The notes: generated by a model not told the origin, from the sequence alone. DNA of 64,000 nt from Nannocystis pusilla (GCF_051105105.1 NZ_CP185339.1); one strand, 5' to 3'. Shown: positions 5,769 through 63,812, counted from the stretch's first letter. Translations and numbers: made by a program.

Positions 5769-6047
5769 CGCTTCGCGTCGACCTCGACGCGTGAAGGAGC
5801 GCCGGCGTCCGCGAACCGAGCCGCGACCGCGAGGACGAGGGTTGTTCCGAGGGCTCCGACGTGGATCGCGGCGTCGACCCGGACATCGGCTCCTGTCGCT
5901 CCGGAGGTTGCGATCTCGCGGTGATTCCGCAGTCGACTCCGGGGCGTCGCGAGCTGGACGACCGCACGTCACGCGCGGGCGCGTCCGGCGGGTCTTCGCG
6001 CCCTCGGGTTCGACCGCGCGGCCGACGTGGAGTAAGACCAGCGCGTC

Positions 6048-7172
6048 ATGCTCCGCCCTTCGGTCGCCGACATCGCCTTCGACGCCGCCCTCTTCGACTC
6101 TCTGCGCAGCGCCCTCGCCCGCGGCGAGCTCAGCCCCACGCGCGCCCGTCTGACCGCCCCGCCGCGGCCGCTCGGCGACGACGTCCTGCTCGACCTCGGC
6201 CGCGCCGACGCCCGGCCCGGCTGGCGCGCGCGCGGCCAGGATGCCCTCGGCGCGCGCAAGGTCGCCGCCCTGATCTTGAACGGCGGCATGGCCACGCGCT
6301 TCGGCGGCGTCGTCAAGGGCGTCGTCCCGGTCTTGCCCGATCGACCTGACCTCTCGTTCCTCGCCGTCAAGCTCGCCGGCGTCCGCGCGGCCGGTGTGCC
6401 GGCCGTCGTGATGCACAGCTTCGCCACCCGGGCTGCCTCCGGCGATCACCTCGCCACCATCGGCTGGTCCGGCGTCCCTGCCGACGACCGCCACGAATTC
6501 TTGCAGTCCTTGATGCCGCGCGTCGTGCCCGACGGCACCCCGCTCGTCAGCCTGCCCGGCGCCGACCTCTTGCCCGACACCACCGTCTACGCCGCACCCG
6601 GCCACGGCGACACCCTCCGGCGCGTGCGCGACAGCGGCGTCGTCGCCGAGCTGCGGCGCCGCGGCGTCGAGCACCTCCTCGTCTCCAACGTCGACAACCT
6701 CGGCGCCTCCCTCGATCCCACCGTCCTCGGCGCCCACCTCGACGCCGTCGACGGCGGCGCCGAGCTCAGCGTCGAGGTCGTCGCACGCGCCCCCGACGAC
6801 GCCGGCGGCTGCGTCGCCGAGGTCGACGGCCGCGCCACCATCATCGAGTCCTTCCGCCTGCCCCCCGGCGTCTCCCTGGCCCAGTATCCGCACTTCAACA
6901 CCAACACCCTGTGGATCTCCCTGGCCGCCCTCGAGCGCCCCTACCCGCTCACCTGGTTCCCCGTCGAGCGCTCCGTCGAGTGGCCCGGCCGCGACGACCA
7001 GCCCGTCATCCAGTTCGAACAGCTCATCGGCCAGATCACCGAGTTCGCCCGGACCGCCTGCCTGCGGGTCGACCGCGCCCGCTTCCTCCCGATCAAGACC
7101 CGCGACGACCTCGCCGCCGCCCGCCCCGCGATGACCGAGATCGTCCGCAGCGTCGGCCTCGATCCCGGCTGA
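6048..7172 (+). CDS. UTP--glucose-1-phosphate uridylyltransferase family protein (UDPGP, PF01704-like)
   Basis: LNGGMATRFGG...KG, the nucleotide-binding loop of UDP-sugar pyrophosphorylases. The 374-aa ORF is intact. Confidence 0.7.
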   Translation: MLRPSVADIAFDAALFDSLRSALARGELSPTRARLTAPPRPLGDDVLLDLGRADARPGWRARGQDALGARKVAALILNGGMATRFGGVVKGVVPVLPDRPDLSFLAVKLAGVRAAGVPAVVMHSFATRAASGDHLATIGWSGVPADDRHEFLQSLMPRVVPDGTPLVSLPGADLLPDTTVYAAPGHGDTLRRVRDSGVVAELRRRGVEHLLVSNVDNLGASLDPTVLGAHLDAVDGGAELSVEVVARAPDDAGGCVAEVDGRATIIESFRLPPGVSLAQYPHFNTNTLWISLAALERPYPLTWFPVERSVEWPGRDDQPVIQFEQLIGQITEFARTACLRVDRARFLPIKTRDDLAAARPAMTEIVRSVGLDPG

Positions 7173-7224
7173 CGCAGGCCCTCGCGCGCACCCGGCCTCA
7201 TCCTCGGCCCCCGCCCGCGCAGCG

Positions 7225-7307
7225 GCATGCCCGAAGGGACATGCCCGATTCGACATGTCCTTCTCGCCATGTCCATCACGACATGCCGCGAAGGACATGT
7301 CCAGTAG
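7225..7307. repeat. tandem array of six units of about 14 bp, each GACATGYCC plus a 4-7 nt spacer
   Basis: gcatgcccgaagg / gacatgcccgattc / gacatgtccttctcgc / catgtccatcac / gacatgccgcgaag / gacatgtccagtag. It lies in the intergenic region after the UDPGP gene, about 460 bp upstream of pgi. Confidence 0.8.
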
Positions 7308-7767
7308 TTTCCCCAGCCCTCTCGCGTCCCCACCGCCATTCGCCGCCCCGGAGCCGTCCGCCGCGCCGCCCGTCGCCGCGCACTGACGAGCGCCGGATGG
7401 GTCTCCAGGAGGTCCGAGCGATGGGCGGCCGGCCCCGGCCGTCCATCGCTCGGAGAGCCCTCCCCGCGCCGCGCCCTCCCGACAGCGGAGCCCACGACCG
7501 GCGCTCGGGCCACCCACGAGGCTAGCCGTGCAGCGGTCGGGGACGTGGGTCGGCGCCCATCCGCAGCGAGATGCGCCCGACGAAGGAGGGTGCATCCGCG
7601 AGGACTGGGCGCCGGCCCGCGTCCCCGACCGCCCGCGAGGCGGCCTCGGCAGTTCGCGAACCCCCGCGAAGCAAGCGCAACGAACCCCCGAAGCAAAGGC
7701 CGCCCGCCCGAGGCCTGGCGTCCCCAGGCTCCCCGCGAGCGCCGACGCTGCTATAAAGCGCGCCGAC

Positions 7768-9357
7768 ATGGCCGACGCACTCGACCACTATCTCACCTGG
7801 CGCCTTTACCGTGCCGAACTCGACATCGAGCTCGACTTCGCCGACGCCCAGCTCGACGAGCCCGCGCTGACCGCCAGCGCCCCGCGGCTCGAGGCCGCGC
7901 TGGACGCCCTTCACCGGATCGAGGGCGGCGCCGTCGCCAACGCCGACGAGGGCCGCATGGTCGGGCACTACTGGCTGCGCGACCCGGAGCGCGCCCCCGA
8001 TCCCGCGATCACTCAGGCCATCCACGACAGCTGGCGGCAGATCGAGGCCTTCGCCGCCGGCGTGCGCGGCGGCCAGATCCTCGCCGACGACGATCGGCCG
8101 TTCACCGGCGCCATCCTCGTCGGGATCGGCGGCAGCGCTCTCGGCCCGCAGCTGCTCGAGGCCGCCCTCACCGCGCGGGACAGCGGCCCCGGCTTCAGCC
8201 TGCGCGTCCTCGACAACACCGACCCGGCCGGCATCGCCGACCTGCTCGCAGAGACAGGTACGCTCGCGCAGACCTTGATCCTCGTCGTCTCCAAGTCGGG
8301 CTCCACCGTCGAGACGCGCAACGGCATGCTCGAGCTGCGGGCCGCCTGCGCCCGGCAGGCGATCGAGTTCCCCAAGCGGGCGATCGCCATCACCCTCGAG
8401 GGCAGCGCGCTCGATCAGCTCGCGCAGCGCGAGGGCTGGCTGGCGCGCTTCCCCATGTGGGACTGGGTCGGCGGGCGCACCAGCGTGCTCTCGCCGGTCG
8501 GCCTGCTGCCGGCGGCGCTGCTCGGCCACGACTGGCGCGGCCTCCTGCGCGGCGCCGCGGCGATGGACCAGTGGGGCCGCGTGCGGCCGGCGCGGCGCAA
8601 CCCGGCCGCCCTGCTCGCCTGGCTGTGGCACCAGCAGGGCTCCGGACATGGCCTTCGGGACATGGTCATTTTGCCATACAAGGATCGCCTGTCGCTGCTG
8701 TCGCGCTACCTGCAGCAGCTGGTGATGGAGTCGCTCGGCAAGCGGCTCGACCGCCAGGGGCGCGAGGTGTGGCAGGGGCTCGCGGTCTACGGCAACAAGG
8801 GCTCGACCGACCAGCACGCCTACGTGCAGCAGCTGCGCGACGGCCTGCACAACTTCTTCGCGGTGTTCGTGCGGGTGCTCCGCGACCTCGACGGCCAGGT
8901 CACGGGCCCGGGCATGGTCGAGGTCGAGCCGCAGGTGAGCTCGGGCGACTGCCTCGACGGCTTCTACCAGGGCACCCGCGCCGCGCTCGCCGAGCGCGGT
9001 CGGGCCAGCGCGACGATCGTCCTGCGCCAGGTCGACGCCGCCGCCGTCGGCGCCTTGATCGCGCTGTTCGAGCGCGCGGTCGGGATCTACGCCGAGCTCA
9101 TCGACGTCAACGCCTACCACCAGCCCGGCGTCGAGGCCGGCAAGCAGGCGGCGAAGGGCGTGCTCACGCTGCAGGCCGCGGTGCTCGCCGCGCTGCCGGG
9201 CGGCTCTGGAGGCAAGACCGCGCGCGAGCTCGCCGAGGCGCTCGGCGCCGACCCCGTGGCGGTGTGGCAGGTGCTGCGTCACCTCGCCAGCAACGGCCGC
9301 GTGAGCGTCGACAGCCTCGTCGATCCGGCGGCTGCACAGTTCGCGCGCGCGCCTTGA
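7768..9357 (+). CDS. pgi: glucose-6-phosphate isomerase
   Basis: Carries the SIS-domain PGI motifs (ILVGIGGSALGP, LVVSKSGSTVET, ESLGKR, HAYVQQL). The ORF track starts earlier at 7528, but the first convincing start is the ATG at 7768 (MADALDHYL). Confidence 0.85.
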   Translation: MADALDHYLTWRLYRAELDIELDFADAQLDEPALTASAPRLEAALDALHRIEGGAVANADEGRMVGHYWLRDPERAPDPAITQAIHDSWRQIEAFAAGVRGGQILADDDRPFTGAILVGIGGSALGPQLLEAALTARDSGPGFSLRVLDNTDPAGIADLLAETGTLAQTLILVVSKSGSTVETRNGMLELRAACARQAIEFPKRAIAITLEGSALDQLAQREGWLARFPMWDWVGGRTSVLSPVGLLPAALLGHDWRGLLRGAAAMDQWGRVRPARRNPAALLAWLWHQQGSGHGLRDMVILPYKDRLSLLSRYLQQLVMESLGKRLDRQGREVWQGLAVYGNKGSTDQHAYVQQLRDGLHNFFAVFVRVLRDLDGQVTGPGMVEVEPQVSSGDCLDGFYQGTRAALAERGRASATIVLRQVDAAAVGALIALFERAVGIYAELIDVNAYHQPGVEAGKQAAKGVLTLQAAVLAALPGGSGGKTARELAEALGADPVAVWQVLRHLASNGRVSVDSLVDPAAAQFARAP

Positions 9358-9400
9358 CGCGCGAGACGTCGCGGCGAAGGGCGAGTATCCTGCCGCGCCC

Positions 9401-10816
9401 ATGGCCCCGGTCCCCGGACTCCGCGCGCTCGTCACCCTGGCCTGGCCGATCGTGCTCGCACGCTCGGCGCAGTCGGTGATCAGCTTCAGTGACGCGGCGA
9501 TGGTCGCCCCGCTCGGCGACGACGCGCTCGCGGCCGCGACCACGGGCGCCATGAACGCGCTGGGGATCCTCGTCCTGCCGATGGGCATCACGTTCATCGT
9601 CCAGAGCTACGCGGCCCAGCTCGCCGGTCGGGGCGACCTCGCCAGCGCGCGCCGCTACGCCTGGTACGGCCTGTGCCTGGCCGCCCTGGCGATGATCGCC
9701 ACCATCGCCGCCATCCCGGCGATAGGTCCGCTCCTGTCGCTCACCGGCCACGCGCCGGCGGTGCGCGAGACGATGGCCGAGTACATGGCGATCCGCATGC
9801 TCAGCACCGGCGTGGTCGTCGGCACCGAGGCGCTCGGCAACTGGTTCGCCGGCCTCGGCGACACCCAGGTGTCGATGCGCGCCAGCCTGGTCGCCATGGT
9901 CGTCAACATCGGCCTCAACTGGGTCCTGATCTACGGCAACCTCGGCGCCCCCGCGCTCGGCGTCCAGGGGGCCGCGTGGGCCAGCGTGCTGGCCAGCGTG
10001 GCCGGCTTCGCGGTGTGCTGCCACGCCTTCTGGCGCGCGCGCGACCGGCGGGCGATCGACCCGGCGGCGCTCGGGCACGTCGAGCACCCGGTACCTGACC
10101 TTCCGGACAGCTCGGACGGCCGCCTCAACCTGCGCGAGTTCTCGCGGATGATGCGGTTCGGCCTGCCGAACGGCCTCAACTGGTTCCTCGAGTTCGCGGC
10201 CTTCCTGATCTTCATCAACCTCGTGGTCGCCGAGCTCGGGACCGTCGCGGTCGCGGCGCTGATGGCCGTGGTGGCCGTCAACTCGGTCTCGTTCATGCCC
10301 GCCTTCGGCCTCGGCTCGGCCGGCGCGGTCCTGGTCGGCCAGGCGATCGGCGCCGGCCGCCACGACCACGTGCCGCGGATCGTGGTGCGCACCTTCTCGG
10401 TCGCCGCCGCCTGGCAGGGCCTGGTCGGGCTGCTCTACTTCACGATCCCGGTGCCGCTGATGACGATCTTCGCCCGCGACGAGGTCGAGACGTCCAGCGA
10501 GGTCGTGCACCTCGGCGCCCAGCTGCTGGCGATCAGCGCCGTGTGGCAGCTGCTCGACGCCTCCGTGATCACCTTCAGCGAGGCGCTGCGCGCCGCCGGC
10601 GACACCGCCTGGCCGCTGATCCTCCGGATCGCGCTCGCCTGGGTGATCTGGCTGCCCCTGGCCTGGCTGACCGTGTTCGTCTGGGACGGCGGCGCGACCG
10701 CGGCGATGTGGAGCATGTGCGTGTACATGGTGTTCCTCGCCCTGGCGATGGTGCTCCGCTTCCGCACCGGCGCCTGGCGCCGCATCGACATCACCGGCCG
10801 CGGCGCGACCGGCTGA
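9401..10816 (+). CDS. MATE family efflux transporter
   Basis: 471 aa with 12 predicted TM segments. It has a typical MATE N-terminus (LAWPIVLARSAQSVISFSDAAMVAPLG) and the internal two-fold repeat. Confidence 0.8.
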   Translation: MAPVPGLRALVTLAWPIVLARSAQSVISFSDAAMVAPLGDDALAAATTGAMNALGILVLPMGITFIVQSYAAQLAGRGDLASARRYAWYGLCLAALAMIATIAAIPAIGPLLSLTGHAPAVRETMAEYMAIRMLSTGVVVGTEALGNWFAGLGDTQVSMRASLVAMVVNIGLNWVLIYGNLGAPALGVQGAAWASVLASVAGFAVCCHAFWRARDRRAIDPAALGHVEHPVPDLPDSSDGRLNLREFSRMMRFGLPNGLNWFLEFAAFLIFINLVVAELGTVAVAALMAVVAVNSVSFMPAFGLGSAGAVLVGQAIGAGRHDHVPRIVVRTFSVAAAWQGLVGLLYFTIPVPLMTIFARDEVETSSEVVHLGAQLLAISAVWQLLDASVITFSEALRAAGDTAWPLILRIALAWVIWLPLAWLTVFVWDGGATAAMWSMCVYMVFLALAMVLRFRTGAWRRIDITGRGATG

Positions 10817-10823
10817 TCGAGCC

Positions 10824-10880
10824 AGCTCTCGAGGGCATGTTCTCGAGAGCATGTCCTCGAGGGCATGCTCTCCAGGACAT
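10824..10880. repeat. tandem array of four units of about 14 bp (GCATGYYC-TCGAGR-like), filling the convergent intergenic region
   Basis: gggcatgttctcgaga / gcatgtcctcgagg / gcatgctctccag / gacatgctcttcag. It lies between the MATE stop (10816) and the DUF1963 stop (10886). Confidence 0.8.
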
Positions 10881-10885
10881 GCTCT

Positions 10886-12304
10886 TCAGTGGCACTGCAG
10901 CGCCCCGCGCGCCTGCGACCAGTCGTGGACGGCCAGGGCGTCGGCGGGGATCCAGAAGTAGAAGAAGCCACCGTCCTGGTTGAGCAGCAGCTCGCCGTCC
11001 TCCTGGGCGTCGATCTGCAGCAGCAGCCGCCAGCGCAGCGCTCGCCGGCGGACCGCCAGCGCCTCGGGGCTGCCGTCGTCCCAGCCGTCCCAGCCCCCGG
11101 GGCGGGTGTCGATCTCAACGTCGAGGTACGGATCGCCCTGGATCGAGGCCGGGTGACCGAGCAGGCGGTGGTACGGCCGCTCGTAGTCGTCGAGCTCGCC
11201 GGACTCGGCGATGAAGCGCTCGAGCGGGTTGAACGGGACCAACTCGCCCCCCTCGCCCTGCTGACGCTGACGATGGACCTCGAGGATGCGCGCCTCGGGC
11301 AGCAGTGACTCGTAGAAGAAGTAGCTGTCGACGCACGGGTACAGCAGCTCGTCGGCGACGTCGATGTCGTGGGCGCTCAGCCGCTCGACCCCCGGAGGCA
11401 CGGGACGACGCGCGAGCACGTCGAGGTCGGTGAGGTGGAGCACCCGTACCGGATGGCCGCGCACGCCGTCGGGCGGGATCGGGGCGTAAAAGAAGCTCAG
11501 GAGGCCGTGCGCGGGCAGCTCGCGCGCGGCGGCGCGGCCCGCCAGCTCGGCGAGATCGAACTGGGCGACGAAGGTCAGCAAGACGCCGTCGACCTCGGGC
11601 CACGCGAGGTCGGGCGGCAAGTCGGGAGCACCGCCCAGGCGCGTCTGACCGGCGAGATGGACCTCCGCGTCGCCGCCGTCATCCTCGTCGACCTCGGCCT
11701 CGTCGCCTTCATCGCCGCCGTCATCCTCGTCAACCTCGGCGTCGTCCTCGTCGAGCTCTTCGCTGCGAGAGAGATGCAGGCGGATCGACGGGCGGGCCAT
11801 GGCTCGCACCTCGGCGACGTGCTCGGCGAGGCCGAGCGGCTCCAGGCGCTCGCGCCACTCGGCCTCGCGCGCGGCCTCGTCCATGGCCGCGAGGCGAACC
11901 GGATCGCGGAGCGCCGCGGCGAACTCGTCGGGCCGCTGCAGCGCTTCGTCGGCGAGCACTGCTCCGTAGACGAACAGGTCGCAGGGCATCATCGCGTCGG
12001 GTTCGCCGAAATGCGCGAGGATCGCGGGCATCGCCTGCAGGTGGCCCTCGACGTACGCCAACCAGCGCTCGGGGGCGTGCTTGCGATCGTCGCCGATGAA
12101 GACCTCCTGCTCACGGACATCGAGCGGGAGGACGCCGTCGACCGGATCGAAGGTCGTCAGCCGCAGGGCCATGAGGAAATAGCCCGCCTCGCTGCGCCAC
12201 ACCGGCGCGTCGTAGCCGGACGCGAACGCGAGCTCGACGGATCCTTCGCGCAGCGGGAGGTGACGGCGGAACAACTCGAGCAACCGGTCGGGATCGACGC
12301 TCAC
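10886..12304 (-). CDS. DUF1963 (YwqG-like) domain protein with an internal acidic D/E repeat
   Basis: The C-terminal ...LLLQIDAQEDGELLLNQDGGFFYFWI... is the DUF1963 signature. A low-complexity DEDDAEVDEDDGGDEGDEAEVDEDDGGDAEV linker sits mid-protein. Confidence 0.6.
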   Translation of the reverse strand: MSVDPDRLLELFRRHLPLREGSVELAFASGYDAPVWRSEAGYFLMALRLTTFDPVDGVLPLDVREQEVFIGDDRKHAPERWLAYVEGHLQAMPAILAHFGEPDAMMPCDLFVYGAVLADEALQRPDEFAAALRDPVRLAAMDEAAREAEWRERLEPLGLAEHVAEVRAMARPSIRLHLSRSEELDEDDAEVDEDDGGDEGDEAEVDEDDGGDAEVHLAGQTRLGGAPDLPPDLAWPEVDGVLLTFVAQFDLAELAGRAAARELPAHGLLSFFYAPIPPDGVRGHPVRVLHLTDLDVLARRPVPPGVERLSAHDIDVADELLYPCVDSYFFYESLLPEARILEVHRQRQQGEGGELVPFNPLERFIAESGELDDYERPYHRLLGHPASIQGDPYLDVEIDTRPGGWDGWDDGSPEALAVRRRALRWRLLLQIDAQEDGELLLNQDGGFFYFWIPADALAVHDWSQARGALQCH

Positions 12305-12389
12305 GGGCGCATCATACCGACCGGCAAGATTCCCGCGCTCGCCCGCCCGGCGCGCTGCGCCCGAACCGACGACGCGCGCGAGGATCTGC

Positions 12390-13415
12390 CTACAGCCCCA
12401 CGGGCCCGGCGAACGCGGCCAGCAGCTCGGCGGCCGCGTGATCGGGGCTGAGCCGCCCGGCGCGGACGGCCGCCTCGAGCGCGGGCCGGCGCGCGAGCAC
12501 CTCGGGATCGGCGGCGAAGCGGCGCATCAGCTCGGCCTCGATCGCCCGCCACAACCAGTACACGTGCTGGGCCTCGCGCTGGGCCTGCCAGGCGGGGCCG
12601 GCCTGGAGGGCCTCGCGGTGACGCTCGACGGTCTGCCACAGCGCCGCAAGGCCGGCGCCGGTGACGGAAGAAGTGGTGACGACCGGGACCGACCAGCCGG
12701 CGTGCTTGGGCCGGATGAGGCGCATCGCCAGGGCGTACTCGGCGCGGGCGCGCTCGGCGGCGGCGAGGTTGTCACCGTCGGCCTTGGTGATGGCGAGGAT
12801 GTCGGCGAGCTCGAGGATCCCGCGTTTGATGCCCTGCAGCTCGTCGCCGGCGCCGGCGAGCATGAGGACGAGGAAGCAGTCGACGAGCTGCGCGACCATC
12901 ACCTCCGACTGGCCGACGCCGACGGTCTCGACCAGGACGACGTCGAAGCCCGCGGCCTCGCACAGCAGCACGGTCTCGCGGGTATGACGAGCGACGCCGC
13001 CGAGCTCGCCGAGCGACGGCGACGGGCGGATGAAGGCGCGCGGCTCACGGGCCAGCTCCTGCATGCGGGTCTTGTCGCCGAGGATGCTGCCGCCGCTGCG
13101 CACCGAGCTCGGATCGACCGCGAGCACGGCGACGCGGCGACCGAGGTCTCGCACCAGATGGAGGCCGAGCGCCTCGATCAGGGTGCTCTTGCCGGCCCCC
13201 GGGCTGCCGGTGATGCCGACGCGCAGCGCCCCGCCCGCCCGCGAATCGCCCGTCTGCAGCGCCGCCACCAGCTCGCGCGCCAGCGCCTGATCGTCGGCAC
13301 GCTGGCTCTCGACCAGGGTGATCGCTCGCGCCAGCACCGCGCGATCGCCGGCCTGCACCCCCGCTGCGTACGCCTCGACGCTGAGCCGCCCTCGTGCCAT
13401 CGCCGGGCGCACCAT
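12390..13415 (-). CDS. meaB: methylmalonyl-CoA mutase-associated GTPase MeaB/ArgK
   Basis: P-loop GITGSPGAGKST plus ...VLVETVGVGQSE... and ...ILAITKADGDN..., the G-protein metallochaperone motifs. Confidence 0.8.
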   Translation of the reverse strand: MVRPAMARGRLSVEAYAAGVQAGDRAVLARAITLVESQRADDQALARELVAALQTGDSRAGGALRVGITGSPGAGKSTLIEALGLHLVRDLGRRVAVLAVDPSSVRSGGSILGDKTRMQELAREPRAFIRPSPSLGELGGVARHTRETVLLCEAAGFDVVLVETVGVGQSEVMVAQLVDCFLVLMLAGAGDELQGIKRGILELADILAITKADGDNLAAAERARAEYALAMRLIRPKHAGWSVPVVTTSSVTGAGLAALWQTVERHREALQAGPAWQAQREAQHVYWLWRAIEAELMRRFAADPEVLARRPALEAAVRAGRLSPDHAAAELLAAFAGPVGL

Positions 13416-16370: not shown

Positions 16371-19300
16371 GCCTCCTCCTGCGCCACCTCGAAGCCAACG
16401 GCCCGCTGTCGCGCGCCGATCTCGAGGCCGCGACCCGGCGGCAGCAGCTGGCCGGCGGCAGCCTCGACACCGCGATCCTCGAGCTCGGGCTGATGACCCC
16501 GCTGCAGCTCGACGCCCTGCTGCAGAGCGCCTGCGGCCTCCCCGGCGCGCCGGTGCGGCTGCTCGAGCGCGGGCCGACCCGTCCCTGGGAACATGTCCCG
16601 AGAGACCTGGTCGACATCGGCTGGGCCATGCCGCTCGCGCAGGAGGACGGCCGGCTGATCGTCGCCGTCCACCCCGACCTGCCCGACGCCAAGCTCGGCC
16701 AGCTCTACCGCATGGTCCGCGGCTTCTACCCGGTCGTCGCGCCCGAGTGCTGCCTGGCCAAGATCGCCGTCGAGCGCACCGGCTCGATCCTCGCCCCGCG
16801 CTACGCGCTGATCCTGCTCGACTACCTCGAGGCGCTGCGCACCGCCTCGATCACCATCAGCCTGGTGCCGGGCTCCGCCGAGGCGCGGGCGGGCGAGCCG
16901 CCTGTCCCTGCGGACAGGCAGCCGGCCGAGGCACCTGTCGCAACGGACAGGCAGCCGACGGCGGCCCGCGCCGAGGCAGCTGTCCCTGCGGACAGGCAGA
17001 CGGCCGACGCGCCCGACGCGGCGCCTGTCCCTGCGGACAGGCAGACGGCCGACGCGCCCGACGCGGCGCCTGTCCCCGCGGACAGGCAGCCTGCCGACGC
17101 CCGAGGCGCCGACACGACTGTCCCTGCGGACAGGTCGCACGCCGAGGCGCGACCGGAGCCGTCCGGCGCCGACACCCCGGTCGACGCTCGCCTCGCCGAC
17201 GCGCCCGCCGGCGATCGCCAGGCAGGCGACCCCGACGCGAGCCTGGAGCCCGGCGCCCCGGCCCGCCGCACCGACGCGCCCCCCGCCGCCCACGGGCTGG
17301 AGGTCGAGGCCGGAGGCCCTGCCCTCGGTTCGTCGCGACCCGGCGGGTCGGTGATCGGCCAGGTCGCCGCTGGTCGCGCGGATGCTCCTGTCCCTGCGGA
17401 CAGGTCCGCCGCCGACGCGAAGGTCGACGGGGCCGAGGCCTCGACTGCGGCCGGCGCCGTGCAGGCGGACGCCGCGGACGACGGGCGGACCGCCGCTGCC
17501 CCTGCCACCGGGGACGGGACGACCGCGGGCGCGCGGCCGGCGTCGCTGGCCGACGCGCTGCAGGCCGACGTACCTGTCCCATCGGACAGGCAGATGGCCG
17601 GGCCGCGCCCGGCGGCGATGTCCGGGCCCAACACCGCGGCGCGCGCGACGGGTTCGCCGTCCGGCGCCTCGCCGTTGTCGGAGGCCGGCTCGCCGAGGAC
17701 CGGGCCCGAGGACGCGGCCGCGACACCGCCTGCCCCCGGGGACAGGCCGAACGAGTCGCCCGCACCTGCCCTCAAGGACAGCCGCGACGAGGCCATCGAC
17801 GCGGACCGGGCCCGCCCGGCGAACGGGCCCGCGCTCGCCGCGGGTTCGTCCCCCGCGGCGCCGACTCCCGCCGGTTCGACGGCGTCCGACTCGGACGCCC
17901 ACGCGCCTCTCGCCGCCGACGAGCTCGCCGCGGACCGAGCGGCCGCCAGCAGCCCCGCGCCGTCGGCGTCGGCCCCGGCCGATGCAACTGTCCCTGAGGA
18001 CAGCAAAGGCGAAGCATCGCCGTCGCCGAGCGTCGCCGGCGCGTCCGCACCGGTCCCCGCGGGCAGCTCCGCTTCCAACGCCTCGACCAGGTCATTCCAG
18101 CTCGACACCCCGAGCCTCGCCGCTGCGGGGCGCCGGACCGAGCCCGCCCCCGCGCCTGCCGCCGCGGCGAGCCGCCAGACGGCTGCCTACGACTCCCGCG
18201 CGCCCGAGCCCGACTCCGCTGCCGCCGCCAACCGGCCCTCGACGCGGCCCTCGCCCGTCCCCGTCGCCCCGGACGCCCCGCTCATCGACCCGGGCGGCTT
18301 CGAGGACGAGAACGCCTCGCTGGCGGCGATGGCCATCGCCCCCGACACGCCGCTCATCATCCTGCCGCCGGCGACCACGCCGCGACCGGTGACCCCGCCC
18401 CTCGGGGTGCCGATCTACTCGGACACCTCGTCCGGCAATTGGGACAGGCGCACCCTCGTCGGCATCCCCGTCGGCGTGGCGCCCTCCCCCGCCCCCGCGG
18501 CCGACAAGCCCGCGGCCGCGCACGGCCCGAGCAACGGCGTCGCTCGCCCCACGACCGCGCCGGGCACACCTGTCCCTTCGGCCAGCCCCGTCGAGCCCGC
18601 CCCGAGCCCGCCTGTCCCTTCGACCAGCTCCCTGGAGGCCGCGCCGAGCGCCGCCGAAGCCGGGTCCGACGAGGATCTGGTCGAGTCGTCGACGCGCAAG
18701 CCGCCGGCCCTGCCGCAGCCGATGGTCATGACGCTGGCGCAGCGCCTCGACGCCGCCCGCGCCACGCTGGCCACCGCGCGCGAGCGCGACCGGATCACCG
18801 AGGCCCTGGTGCGAGCCGCCAGCCTGATCGCCCCGCGCGTGGCCCTGTTCGGGGTCAAGCGCGAGGGTCTGCGCGTCCTGGCCGCGCCCGGCAGCGCGCT
18901 GCGGATGTCCGAGGGCCTCGTCATCCCGCTGCCCGAGGGCGGCCTCCTCGATCGCGCGGTGTCGGGCCAGGGTCCGCTGCACCTCCTGATCGAGCCGAGC
19001 CTGTCGTTCGCCGTCGGCCAGCCGCTGGGGATCCCCTGCATCTTCGAGCCCGTGCTCGCTGGCGGACGCACCGTGCTGATGCTCTACCTCGACCGCTCCG
19101 GCGTCGCCTTCGATCCGCGCGAGCGGACCGTCCTGCGCGAGCTGTGCGACACGGCCCGGCAGAGCCTCGAGGCGCTGCTGCGGCTGCTCGGGTGGGTGGT
19201 GCCCGGCGGCACGCCCGGGGCCGGCCCGGCCGACCGTACACGCCCGTCGATCCGGCCCGCGACCCCGATCGTCACCGTCGACGAGGCCGACCCGCCGGGG

Positions 19301-21637
19301 ACGACACCACCTGTCTCTGCGGACAGCTCCGAGCTCGAGCCCGAGCCGCCGGCCGCCGAGGCCGAGGCCGAATCCGACCCGCCCCAGCCGCCGCCGACCG
19401 CGAGCGGCGCGGCGAGTGAACCCGGCTTCGGAGACAACAACAGCGTCGCCAGCCGGCTGCGCAGCCGCGGCAACCGCGGGCGCGCCGTCATCACCCTGAA
19501 GAACCCGATCCGGCGCGACGATCCGGCGACCGTGACGCCGCTGCCGGTCCGCGCCGAGAGCTCCGCGCTCGTGCGGGCTCAGACGCTCGCCGACGAGCCG
19601 CCGCCCCCGCCCGACGAGCCGGAGTACGAGGACCTCACCGACGACCCCGAGGAGCTCGACAGTCCGCCGCCCCGCCGCGACGGCCCCGGCCTCGGCCTCG
19701 CGCCGGTCCCCGTGCCCCTCGGCCCCGAGAACGGCCAGGACAGCCCGCTCGTGGCCCGCTTCGCCGCGATGTTCACCAAGCCGCCGGTGCCGGCGGTGAC
19801 GATCGACCTGTCCGATCGGCCCAATACCTTCGGACATGCGCGATCGGACAGCCCCGAGGCGCCGCCGGCGAGCCCGCAGCCCGAGATGCCGGGCTGGATC
19901 GCCACCGCCGAGCCGTCGGGCATCGAGGACCCGCTGCCGGTGGCGGCGGCGCTGCGGTCGGCCGCAACCGCCGCCGAAGCCCGCGTCGACCACGATCCGG
20001 CGGCGACGCTGCCGGGCGCGCCGCGGGTCGTGCTCGAGGAGACCACGCGGTCATCCACATCCACGCGCGACGAGTTCGACGAGTGGCCGCGCGCCGCCTC
20101 CGACACCCCGACCATCCTCGACCTCTCGCCTCCGCCGACCCACGAGCCGCTGCTGGTCGAGACCCGCGCCGCGCCCGACGCCAAGACTGTCCTCGACCTC
20201 CCGCGGGTCGACTCCCCGGTCCCGCCCGAGACCCTGATCCCCAACCTCGTCGCCCCGCCCGGCATGCCCGGCGCGGGTCGCCGTCGCCGCGCCAACGAAC
20301 CGGCCGAGGACGAGCCGGTGCTGGTGATCCCGAAGACGCTGCGGCGCTCGGGCGGCCTCACCGCCACGCCGCACCCGATGGCCCGTCGCAGCGACCCCGA
20401 CGAGCTCGAAGGCGGCCCGACGCTGTCGATGCCGACCACTCTGATCGGCCCGCGCAGCGGCCGGCGCCGCGGCAAGCACGACCCGCGCCCCGACTCCTCG
20501 TCCAGCGCCCTGACCATGCCCCGGCTGGTGCGCGAGGCCGAGGCCGAGGCCGAGGAGGTTGCGGCCCAGTCGACCGCGGGAGGGGCCGTTCCTTCGGAAC
20601 ATGCCCCCGAGGACATGCCCCGGAAGACCGGTCCCCAAGCGCAGGTCGACGCGAGCGCGCCGGCCGGCGCCGCCGAGGCGAGCGGGTCCGTCGCGGCCTC
20701 GCCGGCCGACGCTCGCCCGGCCGCGGTCGAGCAGTCGACCGAGGAGCCGGCCGCGACCGCCGAGGTCGCCTCCGGCGCGGCGCTCGACGACCGCGAGATC
20801 GACGCGGTGATCGAGGACTTCTTGCAGAACCCGGCCGAGTGGACCAGCGTGTCGCGGCTGCGCGCGCTCGACGAGCGCGGCCTGGCCCGCCTGGCGGCGC
20901 GCTTTCCCGGCCCCATCGACCTCGCCAACGCGACCAACTTCCCGCCGCCGAGCGCTCACGGGCCGCTGCTGCGCGCCTGCGTCGAACTCGGCCACGCGGT
21001 CAGCCCGCACGTGCTCGCCCTGTTCGCCAGCGCACGGCCGCAGATCCGCTTCTACGCCGCGTTCCTGTTCCAGGAGCTGCGCGACCCGAAGTGCCTGCGG
21101 CCGCTCGGTGAGCTGGCGTTCGACTCCGACCCCGACGTGCGGCTGATCGCCACCCGCGTGCTCGAGTCCTACAGCCGCGTGCCCGACTTCGCGACGGTGG
21201 CCGCGGAGATCCGCGGCGAGCTCGAGAGCCCGGACCGCGACCGCCAGCTCCTCGCCGTCGAGGCCGCCGGCACCCTGCGCGACACCCTCGCGGTGCCGCG
21301 TCTCATCGACCTGCTGGCGGTCCGCGACAAGCACGTCCGCGAGGCGGCGCTCGAGGCCCTGTGCTCGATCACCGCCAAGCACCACGGCTACCGCGCCCAG
21401 CGCTGGCGGGCGTGGTACGCCGAGCACGGCCAGGAGCCGCGCATCGAGTGGGTCATCGACGGCCTGCGCCACCGCGACGAGGCCGTGCGCCGCTGGGCCG
21501 CCGACGAGCTGGCGCGGATCACCGGTCAGCGGATCCCGTTCCCGGCCGAGGGCGACCGCCGCAGCCGCGATCTGGCCCTGCGCGCCTGGCAGGCCTGGTG
21601 GGACAGCAACCGCGAGGACTTCACCGCCGGTAGCTGA
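16367..21637 (+). CDS. large multidomain protein of about 1750 aa: N-terminal MshEN (T2SS-E N-terminal-like) domain, long Pro/Ala/Asp-rich disordered repeats, a central GAF-like region and C-terminal HEAT/PBS-lyase repeats
   Basis: GTG at 16367 overlaps the RDD stop. The N-terminus LLRHLEANGPLSRADLEAATRRQQLAGGSLDTAILELGLMTPLQLDALL resembles the GspE-N/MshEN fold. The C-terminus (...DSDPDVRLIATRVLE...DRDRQLLAVEAAGTLRD...DKHVREAALEAL...DEAVRRWAADELARI) is HEAT-repeat-like. The 2156-aa ORF in the track is a GC-driven 5' over-extension through prmA, rsmE and the RDD gene. Confidence 0.7.
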   Translation: MSLLLRHLEANGPLSRADLEAATRRQQLAGGSLDTAILELGLMTPLQLDALLQSACGLPGAPVRLLERGPTRPWEHVPRDLVDIGWAMPLAQEDGRLIVAVHPDLPDAKLGQLYRMVRGFYPVVAPECCLAKIAVERTGSILAPRYALILLDYLEALRTASITISLVPGSAEARAGEPPVPADRQPAEAPVATDRQPTAARAEAAVPADRQTADAPDAAPVPADRQTADAPDAAPVPADRQPADARGADTTVPADRSHAEARPEPSGADTPVDARLADAPAGDRQAGDPDASLEPGAPARRTDAPPAAHGLEVEAGGPALGSSRPGGSVIGQVAAGRADAPVPADRSAADAKVDGAEASTAAGAVQADAADDGRTAAAPATGDGTTAGARPASLADALQADVPVPSDRQMAGPRPAAMSGPNTAARATGSPSGASPLSEAGSPRTGPEDAAATPPAPGDRPNESPAPALKDSRDEAIDADRARPANGPALAAGSSPAAPTPAGSTASDSDAHAPLAADELAADRAAASSPAPSASAPADATVPEDSKGEASPSPSVAGASAPVPAGSSASNASTRSFQLDTPSLAAAGRRTEPAPAPAAAASRQTAAYDSRAPEPDSAAAANRPSTRPSPVPVAPDAPLIDPGGFEDENASLAAMAIAPDTPLIILPPATTPRPVTPPLGVPIYSDTSSGNWDRRTLVGIPVGVAPSPAPAADKPAAAHGPSNGVARPTTAPGTPVPSASPVEPAPSPPVPSTSSLEAAPSAAEAGSDEDLVESSTRKPPALPQPMVMTLAQRLDAARATLATARERDRITEALVRAASLIAPRVALFGVKREGLRVLAAPGSALRMSEGLVIPLPEGGLLDRAVSGQGPLHLLIEPSLSFAVGQPLGIPCIFEPVLAGGRTVLMLYLDRSGVAFDPRERTVLRELCDTARQSLEALLRLLGWVVPGGTPGAGPADRTRPSIRPATPIVTVDEADPPGTTPPVSADSSELEPEPPAAEAEAESDPPQPPPTASGAASEPGFGDNNSVASRLRSRGNRGRAVITLKNPIRRDDPATVTPLPVRAESSALVRAQTLADEPPPPPDEPEYEDLTDDPEELDSPPPRRDGPGLGLAPVPVPLGPENGQDSPLVARFAAMFTKPPVPAVTIDLSDRPNTFGHARSDSPEAPPASPQPEMPGWIATAEPSGIEDPLPVAAALRSAATAAEARVDHDPAATLPGAPRVVLEETTRSSTSTRDEFDEWPRAASDTPTILDLSPPPTHEPLLVETRAAPDAKTVLDLPRVDSPVPPETLIPNLVAPPGMPGAGRRRRANEPAEDEPVLVIPKTLRRSGGLTATPHPMARRSDPDELEGGPTLSMPTTLIGPRSGRRRGKHDPRPDSSSSALTMPRLVREAEAEAEEVAAQSTAGGAVPSEHAPEDMPRKTGPQAQVDASAPAGAAEASGSVAASPADARPAAVEQSTEEPAATAEVASGAALDDREIDAVIEDFLQNPAEWTSVSRLRALDERGLARLAARFPGPIDLANATNFPPPSAHGPLLRACVELGHAVSPHVLALFASARPQIRFYAAFLFQELRDPKCLRPLGELAFDSDPDVRLIATRVLESYSRVPDFATVAAEIRGELESPDRDRQLLAVEAAGTLRDTLAVPRLIDLLAVRDKHVREAALEALCSITAKHHGYRAQRWRAWYAEHGQEPRIEWVIDGLRHRDEAVRRWAADELARITGQRIPFPAEGDRRSRDLALRAWQAWWDSNREDFTAGS
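16980..17069 (+). repeat. exact 45-bp tandem duplication (x2, plus a degenerate third copy) inside the giant gene; each unit carries the inverted repeat CTGTCC-CTGC-GGACAG
   Basis: ctgtccctgcggacaggcagacggccgacgcgcccgacgcggcgc occurs twice back to back, encoding PVPADRQTADAPDAA. Further CTGTCC-N4-GGACAG copies lie near 16902, 16935, 17396, 17583, 17995, 19308 and elsewhere. Confidence 0.85.
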
Positions 21638-21649
21638 GCGGCTGTCACT

Positions 21650-21707
21650 TCGGGCATGTCCTGAAAGACATGCCTGAATCGGCATGCTCATTCGGGCATG
21701 TCCTCTG
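21650..21707. repeat. tandem array of four units of about 14 bp of the same family
   Basis: cgggcatgtcctgaaa / gacatgcctgaatcg / gcatgctcattcgg / gcatgtcctctgg. It begins immediately after the giant gene's stop (21637). Confidence 0.8.
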
Positions 21708-22033
21708 GACCAGGCACCGCGGCGACCCGAGCGCGCGCGAGCGCGTGCTACCCGACACGGCCGCAGGCCCGGCCGTCCGGGCGCGGCCTTCGCCCGTGCC
21801 CATGACGGTTCCGGCCGCGACACCGCACCTGCGCCGCCCGAGCTCGCAAGGCCACGGCGCAGGCATGACCGTTCGGACATGCCCCATCGACCTCCCGCTC
21901 GCCCGCCGCAGCCATGACTGTTCGGACACGGCCTTTCGACCATCTCCCTTGTTCAACGCCGGCGACGGGCCCTCGCTGACCAGCGCGGAGGACATGGCCG
22001 ATGCGCCACGCCCTCGGAGCGCCTTCTCGCGGC

Positions 22034-23976: not shown

Positions 23977-23983
23977 CCCGACA

Positions 23984-24015
23984 CCTGCGCTTCAGGACAT
24001 GCCCTGAAGCGCAGG
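23984..24015. terminator. perfect 13-bp-stem hairpin (cctgcgcttcagg-acatgc-cctgaagcgcagg) between convergent genes; candidate bidirectional intrinsic terminator lacking a U-tract
   Basis: It starts 8 nt after the stop of the 22981-23976 gene and ends 110 nt before the 3' end of the 24126 gene on the other strand. The loop and flanks contain the GGACATGCC motif. Confidence 0.45.
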
Positions 24016-24125
24016 TTCGCCTCCCAGCGCTCGGACCGCGACGCGCGGACGCGGACGGCCGCTCCCGCGAGCGCACGCACCCGGCAGCGCCCCGTCAGGC
24101 GCGGCGAACCTCGCGTCCGACCGGT

Positions 24126-33599: not shown

Positions 33600-34326
33600 T
33601 CAGCGGGAGAAGTCGATGCGCTCCTGCATCGGGATGAGGGTCTGGGTGACGTACTTGACCTCCTTGCCGAGGTCCGCGTCCCACACACCGAGGGTGATCT
33701 TGACGCGCTCGGGCAGGCGGTTGGGCTGCATGTCCTGCTTCATCGTGCGCCACTCGTCGCGCCACTCGATGCGCTTGACGTCCCAGTACTTGACGTCGAA
33801 CGACTTGATGTCCTCGCAGAACACGTAGGCCGGCCACCACTCCTCCATCTTCTCCGGGCGGTCGGCCATCAGCCGCCGCGTCTCGCGCTTGTAGAGGTGC
33901 GTGCGGTTGGCGTCGTTCGGGTCCTTGTAGAGGAAGTACTGGATGACCGACTGGTCGCTCTCGTTGGCGTCCTTGCGCATGCGGATGTGGGCGAACGCGG
34001 AGAACGTGAGGCTGTCGGCGTTGAACTCGTCGCGGCCCTCGAACAGCGTGTAGTGCAGTTCATCGCCGGCGGGACGGTTGTGCGACAGGTACGCCAGCGA
34101 GATCTCGGTGCCCATGCGCGCCAGGCAGTTGCGCAGCACCGCGTACTTCTGCTGGGTCTTCTCCGCCGAACGCATGCTCTGCGCCGTCGTGCTGAAGCTG
34201 GCGTAGACCGAGGCGGTCATCATCGTCATCATCGCCACCGCGACGAGGATCTCGATCAGCGACAGGCCGCGCTGGCGGGCTGTCCGCGAGGACATGGTCG
34301 GAACGACATGGCCGATGGTACTCATC
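33600..34326 (-). CDS. gspJ: type II secretion system minor pseudopilin J (GspJ)
   Basis: Prepilin-type N-terminus RGLSLIEILVAVAMM. Its ATG overlaps the gspI stop (ATGA). Confidence 0.7.
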
Positions 34327-49293: not shown

Positions 49294-49424
49294 GCGGAGG
49301 CGGCGAGAAGGATCGCCTGTCTTCGAGGCCATGCTTTCGTGACGCCGGGCGAACAGAGCGATCTGTCCCTGGGGACATCCGCGCCGCTTCGGGCTCTCGG
49401 CTGCCCTCAAGGACAGGTGACCGC

Positions 49425-58547: not shown

Positions 58548-58862
58548 GGCGAGAACGGTAGCCGAGGTCGTGCTGCAGGTGCGAGGGGCGATTTCGCGCG
58601 AACAGGCGAACGCCACGGAGGGCGGCGGGAACGAGGCACGGGCGCGCGTCGCCTGTCGCCAGGTTTTCGGCCCTGGTAGCGGCTGGGAGCGCCGGGCGGC
58701 GAAATCATCGACCGGTCGAGCTCGGCGCGGAGCCACGCTCGGCCGCGCAGCGGGCCGTTCGCGCCTGGGGGCGCCGCCGCCGGGTCGCGGACGGGTGAGA
58801 CGCGATCTGGCCGATGGGACAGACCCTCCGCGACGCCCTCGACCCTCGGCCGGCGCATGTCC

Positions 58863-59837
58863 TCACGGACATGTCGCCGGGGCCAGCTTGCAGTCGGAGA
58901 ACCAGGCGGCAACGTCGCGGCACTGCGGGTCGGCCGGGTCGGCGGCGGCGCAGGCGAGGAAGCCGGCGCGATCGCGCAGGGAGCACAGGCGCGGCAGCTC
59001 CCACTTGCGGTCGCGGCAGCTGGTGTCGCGCGGGTCGCAGGTGCTGCGCATCCAGGTCGCGGTGCCGTCGCCGCGGAGGAACACGCGGTCATCGACGTTG
59101 CGGGCGCCGACCAGGCTCTCGACGCGGAGGCTGGCGGCGGCCTCGGCGGCGAGGGCCTGGTAGAGGCAGGCGTCGCCGGCGACCTCGTCGTCGCACGGGC
59201 GCGGCGAGGCGCAGGCTTCGAGCAGCGCGAGGGCGATGTCACCCGGGCAGCGGCCGGCCGCGCACACGCAGGCGCACGCCTCGGGGTCCTGCGAGCCGAG
59301 GCCGCACTCGGTCCAGCCTGCAGGATGCTCGGGGCCGGGGAAGTCGCCGGCCTTGCGACCGACGCGGCGGACGTGGACGACGTTGCCGACCCGCTTGTAG
59401 AAGGTGGAGTCGTAGTCCTCGTCGCCGGTCGAGGCGCTGGCGGTGGCGCAGAAGCCCGCGGCCTCGAAGGCGCAGGTCGAGCGATTGGCGAGGCGCTCGG
59501 TGGCGAACCAGATGCAACCGGCGGCGTCGCAGTCGGCCTCGACGGCGTGCGACTCGCACGGCTCGACGGCCGCGGGCGGGAGCTCGGGCGCGAGGTCGGG
59601 CGGCGGCGTGACGAGGGCGCCGCTGCCGGTGACCGGCACGCTGGTGGCGGCGTCGCCGGTGCTCGTGCTGCCGGCGGTGCCGGTGGTGCTCCCCTCGCCG
59701 ACCGTCGCCACGGTGCCGCCCTCGCTGTCGGTGCCGCGCGAAGCCGCGTCGGACCGCCCGGGGCTACACCCAGTCGCTACCAGCCACGAGAAGAGATAGG
59801 CGACGCCTGCCGGGCGCGCGCCAAAACCAAACCGCAC
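58863..59837 (-). CDS. Cys-rich lipoprotein, hypothetical
   Basis: Signal peptide plus lipobox (MRFGFGARPAGVAYLFSWLVATGC), a T/G/S linker, then a domain with more than 20 Cys (...CDAAGCIW...CAFEAAGFCA...CACVCAAGRCPGD...). Confidence 0.5.
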   Translation of the reverse strand: MRFGFGARPAGVAYLFSWLVATGCSPGRSDAASRGTDSEGGTVATVGEGSTTGTAGSTSTGDAATSVPVTGSGALVTPPPDLAPELPPAAVEPCESHAVEADCDAAGCIWFATERLANRSTCAFEAAGFCATASASTGDEDYDSTFYKRVGNVVHVRRVGRKAGDFPGPEHPAGWTECGLGSQDPEACACVCAAGRCPGDIALALLEACASPRPCDDEVAGDACLYQALAAEAAASLRVESLVGARNVDDRVFLRGDGTATWMRSTCDPRDTSCRDRKWELPRLCSLRDRAGFLACAAADPADPQCRDVAAWFSDCKLAPATCP

Positions 59838-60802
59838 GGTCTCACCCTGCCAGAGCACGCGCAGGAGATCAAGGAACCGCAGCGCTGGCGGCCCCGGCGC
59901 GGCGCGACGATTGCGACCGAGGCTGCCCGACGATGTGGGCGAGCATCGCCGGTGTAAGAAGCTCGCTGCGACGAATGGGTGATGCGCGACACAGGCCCGG
60001 CGCGATGAAGGATGAAGAAGGAATGCCGGCGACGGGCTGGAGTCGACGGTTGCCCGCGGTTGCGAGGGAGAGGCCCACTCCGAGGCGTTTTCCGCGGGCC
60101 AGCGGGGCCCGGGCGCGGGCTGTGCGAACCGGTGTGCTCGGCTCGGCGGAGCGTCGGTCGCAAGGGTGACCCGCGCTCGCGGCTGCACGGTCGATGACGT
60201 TGGTCCACGCGCCGCCTGCCCTTCCGGCTCGGTCGTCGCGCCCGTTCCTGGCGCTCGCGCGGGCCGATCCTTGCGGTGTCATTCCGTGACCCGCGTCGGA
60301 GGCGAGGCGCGTCGGTGTCGAGGCGAACTGCAACGCGTTGTTCGATCGCGCGGCGGCGCAGGCGACGTCGTCCGGTCGGCGCTGGAGCCGGTGGGCGAAG
60401 CGCAGTGCGTCTGTCGACGTGACAGTGGCGGTGCCGCGGCGGGAGTACGACTGTCCGGTCCAGCGAGGCTGGAGGCGGAGCGCGACCGTCGATTTCGACG
60501 CGCGAGTCAGCGCCCGGCGCGACGGCCACCACGGCGCAGCGAACCTGCCGGGTCGGGATCGGCCGGCGTGCCCCGAGTGCAGGGGCGCGGTCCCTGCCCC
60601 GTCCACGGACCGCCGCGCGGCCGAACCAGGGCGCGGGGTCCCTGCCCCGTTCGCGTCGGATCGGCGCGGCCGAGCCTACCTCGCGCCGCGCGAACGCATC
60701 CCCCGGGCCGGCGGCCTCTTGCTCGCCCGGCTGCAGCGAGCTCGCTGCAGCGGCTGCAAGAACGTCGACGCATTGGGATAGCTGAACGCACACATCCCTC
60801 AC

Positions 60803-60873
60803 GACATGCTCTTTCGAGCATGCTCTTCGGAGCATGTCTTTTCGCCAATGGGCGAAAGAGCATGTCGCTTCGG
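60803..60873. repeat. tandem array of four units of about 14 bp of the same family, with an embedded 7-bp-stem hairpin
   Basis: gacatgctctttcga / gcatgctcttcgga / gcatgtcttttcgccaatgggcgaaaga / gcatgtcgcttcgg. The third unit carries the hairpin tttcgcc-aatg-ggcgaaa. Confidence 0.8.
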
Positions 60874-63677: not shown

Positions 63678-63812
63678 TCAGGCGTTCTCCGGGACATGTC
63701 CGCAGGGACACTCTCGGGCATGGGTTCGCCACCTGTCTTTTCAGTCATGCGGGGGAGCGCCCGGCCGCGCTTGCGGACGCGACCCGCGCGCTGCTATCGA
63801 GGTCGCACCCCC

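Follow-up and report, generated by a model that had tools for sequence, protein, structure and literature searches.

A phased array of 14-bp palindromic units between two convergent Nannocystis genes is one copy of an apparently undescribed, REP-like repeat family

The short gap between two convergent genes in the Nannocystis DNA analysed here (a stretch of 64,000 nucleotides, hereafter the window) is filled by a tandem array of 14-bp palindromic units, and this array is one copy of an apparently undescribed, genus-specific, REP/BIME-like interspersed family. With moderate confidence, and by analogy with REP elements, we interpret it as a copy of a genus-specific extragenic palindromic family that would serve as a bidirectional 3'-end element and that may, we infer, affect transcripts.

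The gap (10817-10885, 69 bp) separates a MatE-family efflux gene on the + strand (9401..10816; Pfam PF01554, E 3.3e-42) from a DUF1963/YwqG-family gene on the - strand (10886..12304; Pfam PF09234, E 1.4e-25), in a window whose G+C content is 71.6%. The array was delimited from the sequence itself, Tandem Repeats Finder, pattern enrichment, the phase of its CATG tetranucleotides and the orthologous arrays of other species; it begins 2 nt past the MatE stop codon (TGA, 10814-10816) and comprises five 14-bp units (5 x 14 = 70 bp, 10819..10888). The first core (GAGCCAGCTC, 10819-10828) is decayed here and intact in the N. pusilla orthologue, and the four that follow are intact: GGGCATGTTC (10833-10842), GAGCATGTCC (10847-10856), GGGCATGCTC (10861-10870) and GGACATGCTC (10875-10884). 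The spacers are, in order, TCGA, TCGA, TCGA, TCCA and TTCA, and the CATG tetranucleotides start at 10836, 10850, 10864 and 10878. Tandem Repeats Finder, by which this was the strongest short-period array nearby, reported a period of 14 over 10825-10885, with 4.4 copies, 82% matches and a score of 80. The stop codon of the DUF1963 gene (TCA on the + strand, 10886-10888) lies inside the final repeat unit, the one with the spacer TTCA.

In the preliminary description of this DNA, the gap was said to be wholly occupied by a four-unit array of a 14-bp repeat. Full occupancy was borne out when the five units, read base by base, were found to span the gap; the count of four is correct for the intact units, to which one further decayed unit has to be added, and the third unit, which had been given one base short, is like every other unit 14 bp in length. 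Because the fifth, decayed unit brings the array to 70 bp, the whole gap is filled and the DUF1963 stop codon is overlapped.

The gap had also been described as containing no hairpin, and this is false. Units 1-4 are predicted to form, as RNA or as single-stranded DNA, a near-perfect 25-bp stem (10831..10886 on the + strand) with the tetraloop UCGA at its apex (10857-10860), which opens 15 nt past the MatE stop and closes on the DUF1963 stop; the complementary strand folds too. The + strand RNA folded at -53.4 kcal/mol for a 96-nt stretch (z -4.87, with 0 of 200 shuffles as stable), the - strand RNA at -44.6 kcal/mol (z -2.9), and the array as single-stranded DNA at -20.7 kcal/mol (z -4.4). 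Each spacer is part of a CTCGAG, so that the array consists of two alternating palindromes. The reported absence of a U-tract was upheld both for this locus, where a scan for the canonical terminator consensus over 6000-13000 returned 0 sites, and for the family, in which the T fraction 3' of the arrays stays at background (0.1-0.17). A search of the whole window against Rfam at the curated gathering score gave 0 matches. Like a bidirectional intrinsic terminator, the array places a strong, symmetric, G+C-rich hairpin directly past the gene end, fills a short convergent gap and can be folded in both transcripts; it differs in that no 3' U run (or 5' A run) flanks it and in that its sequence is itself common to hundreds of loci. 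The earlier argument for a protein-dependent terminator or roadblock had been built on the supposed lack of a hairpin, a premise that does not hold.

The array is not unique to its locus. A search for it elsewhere, which the preliminary description had proposed as a check, was run, and the unit was found at other Nannocystis loci and about 10 times in the 64-kb window, in four arrays with three or more units and about six shorter copies. A degenerate unit pattern matched the window 66 times, as compared to 22 +/- 4.8 in shuffled sequence (0 of 100 shuffles reached 66), and 9 of these matches overlap the array between MatE and DUF1963. The distance from one CATG to another was 14 on 20 occasions and 28, 42 and 56 on 11, 8 and 4 occasions, against 1-5 occasions for each distance that is not a multiple of 14. 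A six-unit copy (7221..7302; z -5.3 and -5.9) lies about 50 nt past the stop of the + gene at 6048-7172 and 225 nt before the next gene. A four-unit copy (21650..21706; z -4.0 and -2.3) is situated in a convergent gap 15 nt past the stop (21637) of a long + ORF, and the same gap holds a two-unit copy (21861..21884). Further two-unit copies were found 8 nt past the stop of the - gene at 34322-35086 (34290..34313) and at the stop of the - ORF at 58863-60188 (58853..58876). Between 60 and 130 nt past the stop of the - gene at 60931-62013 there is a copy made of three units, one decayed unit (CAATG) and one more unit (60802..60871), which folds with z -5.2 and -6.6; a decayed three-unit copy (GGGACATGTCC / GGACACTCTC / GGGCATGG, 63690..63724) follows 16 nt past the stop of the + gene ending at 63677. 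The other arrays of the window resemble the one described above in folding strongly on both strands, with z from -2.3 to -6.6.

A single core, GGACATGCCC, was located at the tip of a perfect palindrome with a 14-bp stem (23986..24014) in the convergent gap 23977-24125; this palindrome has folding energies of -30.5 and -31.2 kcal/mol (z about -7), and the core is displayed in the hairpin loop, not in the stems. Four two-unit matches (8644-8667, 20597-20620, 31163-31186 and 63047-63070) fall inside coding sequence and were not counted as family members. The first of them, CCATGTCC-cgaag-GCCATGTCC in the PGI gene, is a coding coincidence that is kept in all six species including N. radixulma, with its counterparts near 6050-6220 of loci L121-L126.

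The octamer GRCATGYC occurs 26 times in the window as compared to an expected 5.5. A short, lineage-specific and over-represented motif found at terminator positions recalls the DNA-uptake signals of Neisseria (DUS) and Haemophilus (USS), which often lie as inverted pairs at such positions. That the decamer is a signal of this type appears very improbable to us, as most copies lie in phased tandem arrays or intergenic gaps and only 15 are solitary, several of these being decayed arrays, whereas DUS and USS occur throughout coding sequence and form no phased arrays; natural competence of Nannocystis, moreover, was not documented in the literature examined.

To place the array in a wider context, one genome from each of 185,579 species was scanned for four RCATGY sites at a 14-bp phase, a query for which we estimate about 0.5 chance matches in random sequence. 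At least 120 loci were returned, and among the matches listed 89 of 120 belong to Nannocystis, in 7 assemblies. The other 31 listed loci are perfect 7-bp or 14-bp minisatellites from unrelated organisms, with no shared core, and their spacers are copied from repeat to repeat no less exactly than the CATG, which is not the case in the Nannocystis arrays. The 16 matching viral contigs contained unrelated minisatellites only and no family arrays, and in 54 kb from three loci of relatives outside the genus (Nannocystaceae bacterium ST9 and two others) no phased CATG pair was found. That CATG-bearing period-14 minisatellites do arise in unrelated genomes, and that Tandem Repeats Finder sees here a simple period-14 repeat, could suggest that the array is an ordinary minisatellite created by a one-off local tandem duplication. 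This explanation was refuted, and we give it next to no credence: the same core and phase recur with different spacers in about 10 copies in the window, in arrays across 7 Nannocystis assemblies and in the orthologous gap of five other species. Minisatellites and VNTRs, in addition, consist of units that are near-identical, spacer included, and occupy one locus, whereas the Nannocystis spacers are diverse and the loci many.

Family statistics were derived from 712 kb of Nannocystis loci. The 737 units found in this sample gave the logo GGRCATGYCC followed by four variable, A/T-enriched bases, with frequencies of G(0.71) G(0.68) R C A T G Y C(0.68) C(0.71). The phase is exact, as 525 CATG pairs were separated by 14 bp and only 6 and 17 by 13 and 15 bp, respectively. 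Extra arrays of at least three units occur roughly once per 16 kb, and at least 141 arrays of three or more units were counted across the 7 Nannocystis assemblies. Runs of intact units number from 2 to 6 (up to 7 in N. bainbridge), and most arrays are flanked by one decayed unit at either end. The spacers are diverse, with 144 distinct 4-mers among 453, and differ both within and between arrays. R and Y are anti-correlated inside units, in which ACATGC and GCATGT are favoured relative to the fully symmetric forms ACATGT and GCATGC (odds ratio 0.38, p = 7e-8). A C at position +4 is more often followed by a T at +5 (Nannocystis loci L001-L119). Along the arrays, the mirror forms ACATGC and GCATGT alternate only slightly (89 alternating against 67 same-type neighbours), and a model of oriented, BIME-like units was rejected for lack of clear alternation.

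A full-text search of the literature on Nannocystis repeats, the decamer and extragenic palindromes in myxobacteria did not yield a description of the family; the repeats mentioned in the N. exedens genome note are large unresolved ones only. The consensus decamer, GGACATGTCC, is identical to the half-site consensus of p53 response elements in animals, and the 47 literature matches for the string GGACATGTCC were all eukaryotic, the top ones concerning p53, and none bacterial. We take this identity to be a coincidence.

The placement of the arrays with respect to the surrounding genes was determined with a crude, GC3-based gene caller, in which stop-codon ends are exact and starts approximate. 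By this classification, 56 arrays of at least four units lay in convergent gaps, 24 in co-directional (tandem) gaps and 3 in divergent gaps, as compared to 85, 175 and 61, respectively, for all gaps in the same loci. The convergent share is accordingly 67% of the arrays against 26% of all gaps (chi-square p = 4e-22), so that the position of a bidirectional terminator, which had been noted for the single array, holds across the arrays sampled. Arrays in convergent gaps are separated from the flanking stops by median distances of 30 and 23 nt; those in co-directional gaps follow the upstream stop at a median of about 30 nt, and the next start is hundreds of nt away. Arrays are scarce in divergent gaps, which carry promoters, and in coding sequence, and all clear copies in the window obey the 3'-end placement.

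The gene order around the array (PGI-MatE facing DUF1963-MeaB) is kept in six Nannocystis species, in which the DUF1963 orthologues are 63-89% identical, the closest being that of Nannocystis sp. RBIL2 (89%). The array is retained in five other species, at 77-89% identity of the neighbouring protein. In RBIL2 the gap measures 55 bp and holds 4 CATG units; it measures 69 bp in the window (4 intact and 1 decayed unit), in N. pusilla (5 units), in N. exedens (5 units, the middle one decayed) and in N. punicea (5 units, the last reading CACG), and 119 bp in N. bainbridge (7 units). Four of the five array-bearing orthologous gaps, together with that of the window, therefore have a length of either 55 or 69 bp, a difference of one 14-bp unit. 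Folding on both strands, with z from -4.2 to -7.7, is predicted for every one of the five array-bearing orthologues. The spacers differ between species and yet remain complementary, as in GGAAAG/CTTTCC (N. exedens) and CTGGAGAG/CTCTCCGG (N. pusilla), which indicates that a long hairpin is maintained at this gap.

In N. radixulma, the gap between MatE and DUF1963 (L126:3839-3893) contains no array; it is an unrelated 55-bp sequence with a fold z of about 0, and the same species carries many arrays at other loci. In Nannocystaceae bacterium ST9 the neighbouring gene is a different one and no array is found at the corresponding place. In the adjacent MeaB-DUF1963 gap, an array has been gained or lost along with additional DNA: in N. 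exedens, N. bainbridge and N. punicea this gap is 340-530 bp long and carries a 4-7-unit array directly past the MeaB stop (L123:2091, L124:1990 and L125:2200, respectively), and in the window, RBIL2 and N. pusilla it is 85-87 bp long and the array is absent. As the array is lacking at the N. radixulma gap and arrays come and go at the MeaB-DUF1963 gap, single copies are dispensable.

Such variation in presence at orthologous gaps, along with changes of unit number in 14-bp steps, would be expected if the arrays were selfish or neutral DNA, spread by a RAYT-like or another CATG-recognising enzyme or by slippage, and tolerated at gene 3' ends with no function for the host. The depletion of arrays where insertions would do harm (divergent gaps and coding sequence) and the conservation of sequence over hundreds of loci with no structural covariation, as in REP/RAYT systems, point in the same direction. 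We nevertheless regard this scenario as unlikely: a tblastn search with E. coli RayT against about 1 Mb of Nannocystis DNA and the window, a small part of the genomes, found no RAYT homologue (best E 1.5), and the array between MatE and DUF1963 is retained in five other species. Recent slippage, in particular, is not the source of the arrays, as the units within an array differ in their spacers.

The question of whether it is base pairing or sequence that is held constant was approached in several ways. Hairpin potential is inherent in the arrays, whose palindromic cores can all pair with one another, and the mean minimum free energy falls from -26 to -31 and -45 kcal/mol for arrays of 4, 5 and 6 units. 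Compensatory R/Y covariation between adjacent units was looked for and rejected, Watson-Crick pairing being 0.49 and 0.47 as compared to 0.45 at random (Fisher p 0.28 and 0.49). Mirror symmetry of the whole array was rejected as well, as pairing outside the CATG was only marginally above the between-array control, and this in even-sized arrays only. With the 10-mer fixed, the spacers contribute a mean of -1.1 kcal/mol of extra stability (p = 1e-5); a first spacer control had given z -1.8, having also shuffled positions -3 and +6 and so broken part of the core. In 31 co-directional contexts, the stability of the sense and antisense strands did not differ (15 against 16, p = 0.17). The lack of covariation, the small effect of the spacers and the lack of a strand difference leave nothing that is specific to selection at the level of RNA.

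What is held constant is the CATG tetranucleotide and the 14-bp register. In six orthologous array pairs, CATG positions were identical in 100 of 104 cases (96%), a value that is partly inflated because CATG in both species had served to identify the loci of four of the six pairs, as compared to 40 of 100 spacer positions (40%) and 45-67% at the other core positions; the two unbiased pairs, from the gap between MatE and DUF1963, gave 17/20 and 19/20. Compensated variants (such as CGTG with CACG) and loops of 3-6 nt would be allowed if only pairing mattered; they are rare, which argues for a sequence-specific reader. The pattern of conservation would imply a sequence-specific partner, be it a binding protein, a modifying enzyme or an enzyme that spreads the repeat, and a protein partner is plausible, as base pairing would not require nearly so strong a conservation of CATG and of the 14-bp phase.

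One explanation for these findings is that the arrays are phased sites in double-stranded DNA for a putative dimeric protein, either nucleoid-associated, gyrase-like or acting as a two-sided roadblock to RNA polymerase. Such a protein would read each decamer, the 14-bp spacing would set successive dimers about 120 degrees apart on the helix, and the hairpin potential would be a by-product of the repeated palindrome. BIMEs are reported to bind gyrase and IHF. The near-invariance of CATG and the exactness of the phase, the free drift of spacers and flanking core positions between species, and the lack of both compensatory covariation between units and sense/antisense asymmetry are all consistent with this explanation, and the anti-correlation of R and Y within units looks more like a constraint on composition or shape than on pairing. 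On the other hand, no candidate protein was derived from the sequence, the placement at stop codons and the depletion from divergent gaps fit a role at the transcript level at least as well, and the spacers add a small but significant stability and co-vary at the locus in a manner that keeps the long hairpin. We consider such a site array possible, although on the whole less than likely, and treat it, in the role of a roadblock or a topology element, as the main rival to the hairpin element, since it accounts better for the conservation of CATG and phase and no worse for the placement at stop codons. The two readings are compatible with each other.

Of the three alternatives that the preliminary description had offered, the REP-like one was supported, as the family is dispersed, lineage-specific, extragenic, palindromic and located at gene 3' ends. 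As in the REP/BIME elements of E. coli, Salmonella and Pseudomonas, lineage-specific palindromic repeats are present in many extragenic copies, concentrated past stop codons and between convergent genes and scarce in promoter regions; they form clusters of variable number, give stem-loops from either strand, and vary in presence among related strains or species. The differences are equally clear. There is no sequence similarity between the two; a REP unit consists of some 35 nt (20-40 nt for the class) that form an imperfect palindrome, whereas the Nannocystis unit is of 14 bp, a 10-bp palindrome with a 4-nt spacer. REP/BIME copies alternate in orientation and are joined by defined linkers, whereas the units described here are arranged head to tail at a fixed 14-bp phase. 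The invariant part of a REP is its 5' GTAG; that of the Nannocystis family is the central CATG, and GTAG is absent. REP/BIME elements are also linked to a RAYT (Y1 transposase) gene; none has been linked to the present family, for which about 1 Mb of Nannocystis DNA and the window were searched.

Other known classes are less similar. The BOX elements of Streptococcus pneumoniae and the mycobacterial MIRUs are likewise dispersed and intergenic, with a tandem module that varies in number and stable predicted RNA structures, but their modules are of 40-100 bp, with no short palindrome at a strict phase and no CATG core. Phased operator-like or centromere-like arrays (MetJ boxes, omega heptads, ParR/ParG repeats) are composed of head-to-tail sites with fixed spacing and variable copy number, and the Nannocystis arrays share with them specific sites at a fixed centre-to-centre distance; such arrays, however, are found within promoters or partition sites, at a single locus or a few loci per replicon, and not at many gene 3' ends. 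The family is therefore classed as REP-like extragenic palindromic repeats with an unusual, strictly phased tandem design.

A family copy, then, is made of 2-7 head-to-tail units of exactly 14 bp, each a palindromic decamer (GGRCATGYCC) and 4 variable bases, and copies gather directly past stop codons, mostly between convergent genes, their length shifting in 14-bp steps between species. As all cores are self-complementary, any two units can pair, and a transcript arriving from either gene is predicted to form a very stable stem-loop. In the mechanism that we propose for such a 3'-end element, this stem-loop might slow or end transcription with no need of a U-tract, possibly with the help of Rho or another factor; alternatively, or in addition, it could block 3'-to-5' exonucleases. 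The converging MatE and DUF1963 genes would thereby be insulated from each other.

Such a hairpin-based action at 3' ends is suggested by the placement, by the folding and by two analogies. The REP325 element of E. coli was reported to be a partly Rho-dependent terminator and a stabiliser of mRNA, and the presence of REPs in convergent gaps correlates with higher expression of the two genes (bioRxiv 10.64898/2026.03.23.713779). In Streptomyces avermitilis, with a G+C content above 70%, about 25% of the mapped 3' ends have a U-rich motif, and the ends that lack U are genuine (PMC8780764). Against the proposed mechanism, a perfect duplex of 25 bp could also be a substrate of RNase III, in which case the transcript would be destabilised and not protected; the missing U-tract, and the N. 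radixulma gap with neither an array nor a significant hairpin, argue against it too. An additional scenario, which we regard as quite unlikely, is that a dedicated factor reads the phased CATG palindromes, in DNA or in the RNA duplex, and marks gene ends across the genus in a bidirectional manner independent of U-tracts. If true, such a CATG-reading factor would account for the fixity of CATG and of the 14-bp register in an array that otherwise drifts.

Nannocystis genomes measure 11-13 Mb, have a G+C content of 72% and are mined for natural products; to our knowledge, almost nothing is known of their transcript ends. Estimated at several hundred copies per genome, positioned on stop codons and folding both ways, the family is a candidate 3'-end signal, and, as canonical hairpin-plus-U terminators are not evident in the lineage, it is a candidate for the missing one. 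As structure, CATG core and 14-bp phase can each be altered on their own, the arrays may help to part a case in which a hairpin is enough from one in which a protein reads the sequence, a question that is still argued for REP elements after 40 years. The arrays are also compact candidate insulator parts for the engineering of myxobacterial gene clusters, and, as a source of artefacts in assembly and alignment, they are of relevance to annotators.

Several other repeated elements were observed in the window. Next to the six-unit array there is another dispersed, intergenic element, some 300 bp in length (7358-7666), which was also found at L107:438-744 and L126 ~2130-2400. It includes a hairpin with GGCCGGCCCCGGCC as well as the string GACCGGCGCTCGGGCCACCCACGAG, shares 88% identity with a sequence from N. 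punicea, is recognisable in a gap of N. radixulma, and might represent a MITE or a small RNA. Inside the long + ORF ending at 21637, in which third-position G+C is high from about 16400 onward, tandem repeats of 45 and 42 bp (16890-17100 and 18555-18655) contain inverted CCTGTCC...GGACAGG half-sites that match the two outer parts of the core of the array. Isolated TGTCC-N4-GGACA motifs were also present in the convergent gap 49294-49424.
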